Assembly (NCBI GenBank): GCA_963812035.1
Contig: CAWETG010000006.1
Location: 90,337-154,336, forward strand
Source: an uncultured Gemmatimonadales bacterium
Lineage (GTDB): Bacteria; Gemmatimonadota; Gemmatimonadetes; Gemmatimonadales; JACORV01
DNA length: 64,000 nucleotides
Direction of reading: 5' to 3'
The translations under genes were made by a program, and so were the position numbers. Positions 24,018 to 25,338 of this stretch are shown one piece after another. The number at the start of each line of letters is the position of its first letter. Position 1 is the stretch's first letter. The notes below the pieces were generated by a model. It was not told where the DNA came from and ran no database searches. It worked only from the letters and a program-made list of their open reading frames with translations.

Positions 24018-24121
24018 CCGGAGGAACCCCAGGCTCGTCGCTCACCTTCGGCCATCCGGTTTCGTCCCTCGGTGGTCCGAATGACGCCCCCCTTGTATCT
24101 CCCGCCCGCGTCATGATAGAG

Positions 24122-24265
24122 GCATCGTAGAGGCGGGCGATAGCTCGCTCCTCCCTGGGTCTTCGAGACCGTGCGTTAGCCAGGGCGTCGCCCGTCTCTC
24201 GCCTCGAGCCCGAACAGGTGCGCGGCCCAAGACCGCATCGTGCAAGGCTGGGCCAGGTCGAGAGG
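24122..24265 (+). ncRNA. Bridge RNA of the IS110 element (ends approximate)
   Basis: Two internal loops closed by stems, with guides matching the element's own target and donor sites. Confidence 0.8.
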
Positions 24266-24288
24266 GACGTCCGACTCCGGAGGCCCCG

Positions 24289-25245
24289 ATGAGCGCGCCC
24301 GCCTGTTTCGTCGGTATCGATGTCGCGAAAGCCACGTTGGATGTCGCGGTGCGCCCCGCGGGGGAGCCGTGGAGCACGGCCAATGACGACGCCGGCATCG
24401 CCGCTTTGGTGGCCCGGCTGCGACCGCTGGCCCCCGCGCTGATCGTGCTGGAGGCGACGGGCGGCTTCGAGACGGCGGTCGTGGCGGCGGTGGCCGCCGC
24501 CGGCCTCGCGGTGGTGGTGGCCAATCCGCGCCAGGTGCGCGACTTCGCCCGGGCCACCGGGCAACTGGCCAAGACGGACGCGCTGGATGCGCAGATCCTG
24601 GCCCTATTTGCCGAGCGGGTGCGGCCGGAGCCGCGCCCGCTGCCGGATGAGGCGGTGCGGAGCCTGGACGCGCTGCTCACGCGGCGGCGCCAGCTCTTGG
24701 AGATGAAGACGGCCGAGCAGAACCGGCTGGGCTTCGTGGCCGCCGCCGCGGTGCGCCGGGACATTACCCAGCACATCCACTGGCTCGAGCGCCGGCTGCG
24801 CGACGTGGACGGGGACCTGGAGCAGGCCGTGCGCGGCAGCCCGGTGTGGCGGCTCAAGGAGGATCTGCTGCGCAGCGTGCCGGGCGTCGGCCCGGTGGTG
24901 AGCCGGACCCTGCTGGGCGAGCTGCCGGAGCTGGGGACGCTCACGCACAAGCAGATCGCGGCCCTGGTGGGCGTGGCCCCGCGGGCGCGCGACAGCGGCA
25001 CGCTGCGCGGCAAGCGGATGGTCTGGGGCGGGCGGGCGTCGGTGCGCGCGGCGCTCTACATGGGCGCCCTGGTGGCGACCCGCTACAACCCGGCGATCCG
25101 GGCCTTCTACACGCGGCTGCGAGCGGCCGGCAAGCCGGCCAAGGTGGCCCTGGTCGCCTGCATGCGGAAGCTGCTGACGATCCTCAACGCCATCCTCCGC
25201 ACCGGCACCCCCTGGCGCGCCGTGAGCGCGGGAGCTACCTCGTGA
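24289..25245 (+). CDS. IS110 family recombinase/transposase
   Basis: DEDD RuvC-like motifs GIDVAK, LEATG, KTDALDA; C-terminal RDSG; ACMRKLL. Confidence 0.95.
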
Positions 25246-25338
25246 CCAAGACAGGTGCTAACGCCCGTCTACCATACTTCCCGTCGGCATTGGTGCGCCT
25301 GTGAAGCCGGCGTGGCCGGGGCCGGGCGGGAGGCCATC

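Follow-up and report, generated by a model that had tools for sequence, protein, structure and literature searches.

An IS110 element with a predicted bridge RNA that inserts into repeats of a host promoter motif in an uncultured Gemmatimonadales genome

Background

The window, a stretch of 64,000 nucleotides from an uncultured Gemmatimonadales bacterium, contains an IS110 element whose left end appears to encode the guides for its own insertion site. This raises the question of what such an RNA reads in its host genome, and whether the sites have anything in common beyond the bases that the guides specify. The target is, almost always in this genome, a single repeat within a promoter motif of the host that consists of tandem heptamers. 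From sequence, we consider it quite probable that an RNA-guided element of predicted specificity here reads the heptamer of a likely SARP-type activator box, and that base-pairing alone chooses the sites.

The element and its copies

Counted with both CT cores, the element occupies 24092..25259 on the plus strand (1,166 bp plus one core). Its junctions read CGCCCCC-CT-TGTAT (24085-24098) on the left and ACAGGTG-CT-AACGC (25251-25264) on the right. The first-pass annotation had given its extent as 24092..25264; the left boundary holds, and 25260-25264 belong to the target rather than to the element. Four copies besides that of the window have >99% identity to it (type A, five in the genome), a sister type B is present in five copies of about 90% identity, and a type C in two copies of about 74%. 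The earlier proposal had named differing ends in other copies as evidence against it: the nine other A and B copies have the same two ends, and all ten have a CT core at both ends and AACGC as right target.

The left CT core (24092..24093, plus strand) supplies the first two bases of a split heptamer that is described below, and the right core closes a segment that begins with the left donor ACAGGTG (25251..25259, plus strand), upstream of which there is no TTGA -35. All letters of the previously proposed donor, ACAGGTG-CT-TGTAT, are in place. The letters of the proposed target CGCCCCC-CT-AACGC are likewise present, but its left part is not fixed: among the ten A and B copies the left target (CGCCCCC at 24085..24091 in the window, plus strand) is degenerate, with the consensus CGCYTCC. 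Positions 3-7 of the window's left target pair with the left target guide, one pair being U-G.

The recombinase gene (24289..25245, plus strand) encodes a DEDD protein of 318 aa, which matches Pfam PF01548 and PF02371 and scores 224 bits against NCBIfam NF033542 (cut-off 140). Residues D11, E55, D97, D100 and S236 align with the catalytic residues of ISCro4 and IS621, its nearest solved relatives. The non-coding left end measures 197 nt and the right end only 14 nt. Together with the guide-target covariation and the handshake pairing reported below, the catalytic residues and the NF033542 score bear out the view of an intact bridge recombinase that resembles IS621 and has a specificity of its own. 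We class the element as an IS621-type IS110 of known mechanism, intact and present in several copies. Membership of the IS1111 group was considered and rejected, as there is no long non-coding region downstream of the transposase (the stop codon ends at 25245 and the right core starts at 25258).

The bridge RNA and its guides

The consensus fold of 46 left ends has the IS621 layout of a target loop followed by a donor loop, in agreement with what had been proposed for this element, and of the 25 pairs predicted over the entire RNA 14 show compensatory changes. A single left-end sequence folds no better than shuffled sequences (z -0.8), and the bridge RNA had no match in an Rfam search. The target-binding loop (24133..24195, plus strand) has an outer stem 24133-41/24187-95 and an inner hairpin 24158-61/24167-70; the pairing 24140/24188 of the stem suggested earlier (24130-24140/24188-24198) falls in this covarying helix, 24133-24141/24187-24195. 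The donor-binding loop (24208..24253, plus strand) is closed by the stem 24208-12/24249-53 and contains the left donor guide (24214-21) and the handshake base G24247.

Guides were analysed in 195 loci, of which 75 were dropped (partial genes or unparsed ends). The 120 parsed loci gave 94 unique target loops, and removal of four with a non-CT core parse left 90 relatives. None of the conclusions depends on the unpublished genomes G078 and G089. In these 90 relatives the guides covary with the targets. Right target guide positions 10-14 pair in 84-90 of the 90 (the core AG belonged to the anchor), and pairing of the handshake bases with the opposite, non-cognate DNA at its position 7 holds in 85/90 and 80/90. 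C24180 and G24247 of the window element fit this pattern, which is described for IS621 together with a discontinuous right donor guide (PMC11208158).

Two of the four guides of the first-pass annotation stand unchanged. The right target guide GCGUUAG (24173-24179), which with handshake base C24180, pairing donor position 7, makes up the feature 24173..24181 (plus strand), is exact for all ten copies, and the left donor guide (24214-24221) is also an exact match; 0.010 and 0.003 chance matches, respectively, are expected in the left end. The right donor guide, placed earlier at 24241-24246, is retained for 24242-46, while 24241 varies. AU at 24237-24238 is invariant in 46/46 sequences, so the guide (plus strand) is probably discontinuous, consisting of AU 24237-38 and GCAAG 24242-46, by analogy with IS621.

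The left target guide has to be moved. A start at 24146 (the earlier 24146-24153) yields 47/90 Watson-Crick matches over the ten copies, compared with 67/90 for a start at 24148, and among the 90 relatives the earlier offset scores 2.19, no better than the shuffled mean of 2.32, whereas the revised one reaches 4.48, above the highest shuffled value of 3.31. The ten copies and the relatives thus both support the revised guide CUCCUCCCU (24148..24156, plus strand), in which positions 3-9 have 63/70 Watson-Crick matches over the ten copies and target positions 1-2 (CG) are unpaired. The T/C variation of the target sites is explained by the U at left-guide position 5. In 71/90 relatives the guide starts at a conserved G or one base later, with five ties between the two offsets; the left guide of the G008 element fits its two sites poorly.

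The target as a host promoter motif

All ten A and B sites fall in the host motif YTRACGS-N4-YTRACGS-N8-(-10). When the empty sites are rebuilt, nine of the ten read TRACG-N5-CT-AACGC-N8-YANNNT, and the tenth lies in the upstream repeat of the motif. At the window site, all features being on the plus strand, sequence and motif statistics identify the distal heptamer ATGACGC (24081..24087) left of the insertion. The proximal heptamer CTAACGC, composed of the core and the right target, is at 25258..25264, and the predicted host -10 hexamer CATACT follows 8 nt past it (25273..25278). The insertion splits the promoter box of the downstream gene (25339..27102), a predicted lipoprotein gene (signal read by eye) of no Pfam family.

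The motif is not a by-product of the insertions. With the insertion neighbourhoods masked, TRACG/TAACG pairs peak at the 11-bp period (16 and 14 pairs; every other spacing gives 0-2). Among 56 TRACG-N6-TRACG pairs, TANNNT stands at offset 8 in 25, and in 1 at one of the remaining offsets between 2 and 15. A weight matrix, whose training included the rebuilt sites, finds 51 sites of at least 18 bits in the genome and none in the reversed genome. The strict pattern is found in 12/12 congeneric genomes, at 4-32 occurrences per genome against 0 in the reversed control; genomes outside the family have 0-3. Only 3/12 congeneric genomes carry the element's right junction and nine have the motif without it; empty motif copies also occur in the genome of the window element. 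Its presence in masked sequence and in genomes that lack the right junction implies that the motif is independent of the element. The spacers are unconserved and the -10 stands at a fixed distance.

Open reading frames downstream of the boxes look exported in 28/52 cases, as opposed to 20/119 at control promoters, by a crude heuristic. Eighteen of them were scanned and 11 had Pfam matches, among them TonB-dependent receptors, Omp85, beta-barrel, HlyD and peptidases. A standard -35/-10 reading of the motif was rejected because the distal TGACG sits 20 nt from the hexamer.

A remnant on contig C1 (8482-8586) retains only the left end as far as the stem of the target loop, with an internal CT joined to AACGC. 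It sits in the distal repeat of a box and is an eleventh box insertion; its source is a member of the clade that has another left guide.

Congeneric loci lack the block 24018-28300 of the window, which comprises the box, the lipoprotein gene and, at 27153-28223, an IS630-like element: neither an orthologous promoter-gene block nor an orthologous empty site was seen in any of the nine loci examined. In 6/9 the upstream gene runs directly into a leader that we take to be kdp-like; one contig ends there and two loci differ. Elsewhere in the window, 9101-9217 on the minus strand matches the ALIL frameshift pseudoknot (Rfam RF01497).

Which regulator may read the motif

The 11-bp period of the repeats and the 8 bp between the 3' repeat and the -10 are the geometry of SARP promoters, in which direct repeats lie 11 or 22 bp apart and the 3' repeat 8 bp from the -10 (PMC10936776). 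We predict from this pattern that the motif is, with good probability, a SARP-type activator box. BTAD genes are present in 13/13 genomes of the genus, with 3-11 BTAD matches per genome, and one BTAD/SARP gene of the element's genome has a box 45 nt upstream of its open frame. Among SARP loci of the genus, the strict box is found upstream in 3/29 and a repeat pair in 6/29; the strict box occurs in 28/6,014 background tiles.

Pho-type boxes likewise have an 11-bp period, and OmpR-type regulators are also encoded, with four strong Trans_reg_C genes in the genome. The same element and promoter motif could consequently be paired with an OmpR/PhoB-type response regulator or another winged-helix activator, a reading that the linkage of the box to SARP genes at no more than 3/29 loci also leaves room for. 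We consider it unlikely: the exact 8-bp distance is the rule stated for SARPs (PMC10936776), three genomes have BTAD genes preceded by the box, set against a background of 28/6,014 tiles, and some 50 scattered sites fit the 3-11 BTAD matches per genome. Nothing relevant on SARPs in Gemmatimonadota was found in the open-access literature searched. A BTAD gene duplicated on contigs C4 (6420-6665) and C6 (about 1562-1810) has a sense box upstream, along with further TGACG repeats on the opposite strand.

Probable basis of the choice of boxes

Of the 14 CCCTAACGC sites in the genome, 13 are boxes and 10 are occupied by the element. When only bases outside the guide-read 14-mer are counted in the box score, 10/10 occupied sites still fit the box, as do 14/47 empty CTAACGC sites, 12/23 empty CCTAACGC sites and 3/4 empty CCCTAACGC sites. 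The guide-specified word is thus almost confined to boxes, CTAACGC being rare outside them in a genome of 70% GC, so that base-pairing alone would suffice to account for the choice of boxes. In relatives, 5/7 sites known from both flanks fit the box (L110 and L139 fail), and 2/3 sites known from the right flank only have TANNNT at N8. Of the loose ends that public contigs have at the element's left boundary (5 in all), 4/4 of those listed place TAAC one repeat upstream.

Target position 2 is G in 10/10 copies and position 1 is C in 9/10, even though the revised left guide leaves both unpaired. Targeting might therefore need more than base-pairing: a bound activator or open promoter could help the recombinase, or the guide's CG at 24146-47 could pair with positions 1-2 across a 2-nt bulge. 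Types A and B do differ at 24148, the base that would bulge out, and ISPpu10 employs a second, structural determinant (bioRxiv 10.64898/2026.03.19.712850). We nevertheless judge this very unlikely. Three of the four empty CCCTAACGC sites are boxes as well, so CG at positions 1-2 comes with the box, and among the 51 relatives of this register class the two positions are paired in no more than 16 and 20. Choice by base-pairing alone remains our preferred reading.

Relationship to attC-targeting elements

Copies of type C are inserted in attC sites of about 131 bp, at their R'' end, within arrays on contigs C8 and C10, and many IS110-group relatives with a CGUUAG right guide also insert at attC R''. 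In quick trees, the box clade (support 94-98) falls among relatives that mostly target TAAC/attC; this wider group (support 80-89) has no firm internal branching order, and the AU test does not reject a tree in which the attC targeters form a clade that excludes the box clade (p 0.075). The shared right guide of box- and attC-targeting relatives makes them a natural reprogramming series.

That the motif is itself left over from integron attC sites or from some other mobile repeat, hit by a simply attC-seeking IS110, is highly improbable despite this shared guide and the attC-like arms, on the opposite strand, around 2/38 regex boxes in the genome and 4/10 sites in relatives: none of the ten A and B genome sites overlaps a match to the attC profile, which largely refutes such an origin for this genome, at most two of them give weak end-to-end folds in an arm-closing test compared with 9/12 control attC sites, and the motif has unconserved spacers with a -10 at fixed distance.

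The boxes that lie within attC-like arms are those at C10:357270 and 362211 and at the relatives' loci L110, L118, L138 and L139, all on the opposite strand from the array; a regulated promoter in reverse orientation may be present in some attC sites. An integrase-family gene (C8:68324-69340) borders the C8 attC array on its downstream side and points towards it. A different element, whose ORF start looks, by eye, like an IS110-family (IS1111-like) transposase, breaks two attC sites (C8:58076 and C10:about 359340) at an identical point. Eight matches to the right-junction pattern in viral contigs were taken as chance, since none was accompanied by a transposase.

Comparison with known systems

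The element shares with IS621 and ISCro4/IS622, as these are described (PMC11208160, PMC11208158; PDB 8wt6, 9t56), the DEDD and serine catalytic set, a left-end bridge RNA with two guide loops and handshake bases, the CT core, and a donor ending CT-TGTAT. It differs from them in that its target lies in a promoter repeat, its natural right guide pairs 7 nt, its right end has only 14 non-coding nt and lacks the TTGA -35 (present in 0/7 clade members).

A dispersed, multicopy, intergenic target is also common to ISKpn4 and ISPst6, attC-targeting IS1111 elements whose RNA, unlike that of the window element, lies downstream of the gene (PMC11187229). The attC-targeting IS110-group relatives described above share both this kind of target and the CGUUAG right guide with the window element, but read GC|CT-AACG at attC R'', whereas the box clade reads CC|CT-AACGC in promoter boxes. 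ISPpu10, too, inserts into many copies of one intergenic sequence; its target contains a stem-loop determinant (bioRxiv 10.64898/2026.03.19.712850), in contrast to the direct-repeat promoter motif with unconserved spacers found here. SARP operators such as the afs box of AfsR resemble the motif in their heptamer direct repeats of 11-bp period, in two or three copies, with the last repeat 8 bp from the -10 (PMC10936776, PMC10972967, PMC5930380). They differ from it with regard to the predicted box heptamer, YTRACGS, the non-actinomycete host and the number of about 50 scattered sites.

The natural IS110 targets in the literature searched are REP, attC and transposon ends, the attC-targeting cases being known IS1111 elements (PMC11187229). 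Nothing relevant on IS110 elements in regulator sites or promoters was found in the open-access literature searched, in main texts without supplements. The RNA-guided mechanism is known; what is new, with respect to this literature, is the target class. A dispersed, intergenic, regulon-wide motif is used as a landing site, as other IS110s use REP or attC, which would add regulator boxes in promoters to the targets of natural RNA-guided recombinases. The element also points to a putative, so far undescribed regulon that spans about 50 promoters in this uncultured genus of Gemmatimonadales, and it occupies 10 of the 14 guide-matched sites.

Insertion and its consequences

By inference from IS621, the element would excise as a circle, and a complex of recombinase and RNA would insert this circle at the CT of a target, where the predicted bridge RNA would read (CCYCC)CT AACGC. 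The orientation of insertion is always that of the promoter, and one heptamer and the -10 remain before the host gene. With the other heptamer parted from the -10, activation of the downstream gene, mostly one for an exported protein, would likely be weakened, while the reading frame itself would be left whole.

The right donor TGTAT (24094-98) overlaps a TATCTC (24096-24101; joint feature 24094..24101, plus strand) at the position of the family's circle-promoter -10, a role that we take from the family. In most relatives the circle junction reads TTGAC-17-TATCTN. A right-end TTGA is present in 64/86 other relatives compared with 0/7 members of the box clade, in which the -10 position reads TATCTC. 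Insertion into the proximal repeat (9/10 copies) puts the distal heptamer 8 nt before this hexamer, and at the window site TATCTC now stands exactly 8 nt after it. Read-through transcription is required for IS621 to excise, and a promoter upstream raises excision about 100-fold (PMC13626964), so that landing in a promoter offers a possible answer to how an integrated copy is transcribed.

One could go further and suppose that the element has swapped its own promoter for the host activator, which would drive bridge RNA, recombinase and excision. The element would then act as a regulon-coupled, reversible off-switch on surface-protein genes, excision restoring the host promoter, and would have arisen from attC-targeting ancestors by retuning of the left guide only. 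We regard this extension as rather doubtful. TATCTC lacks the final T seen in 46/51 boxes, 10/22 other TAAC-type relatives are likewise without TTGA, and usually only one heptamer is left upstream. The copies A4, L111, L115 and L117 are inserted in the distal repeat and have no heptamer upstream at all.

No circle junction or empty-site joint was seen in the public DNA contigs examined, a blank that is evidence neither way. In one public contig, a loose end at window position 24228 leaves the donor loop and runs into right-end-like sequence, which suggests a small, internally deleted derivative of the element.
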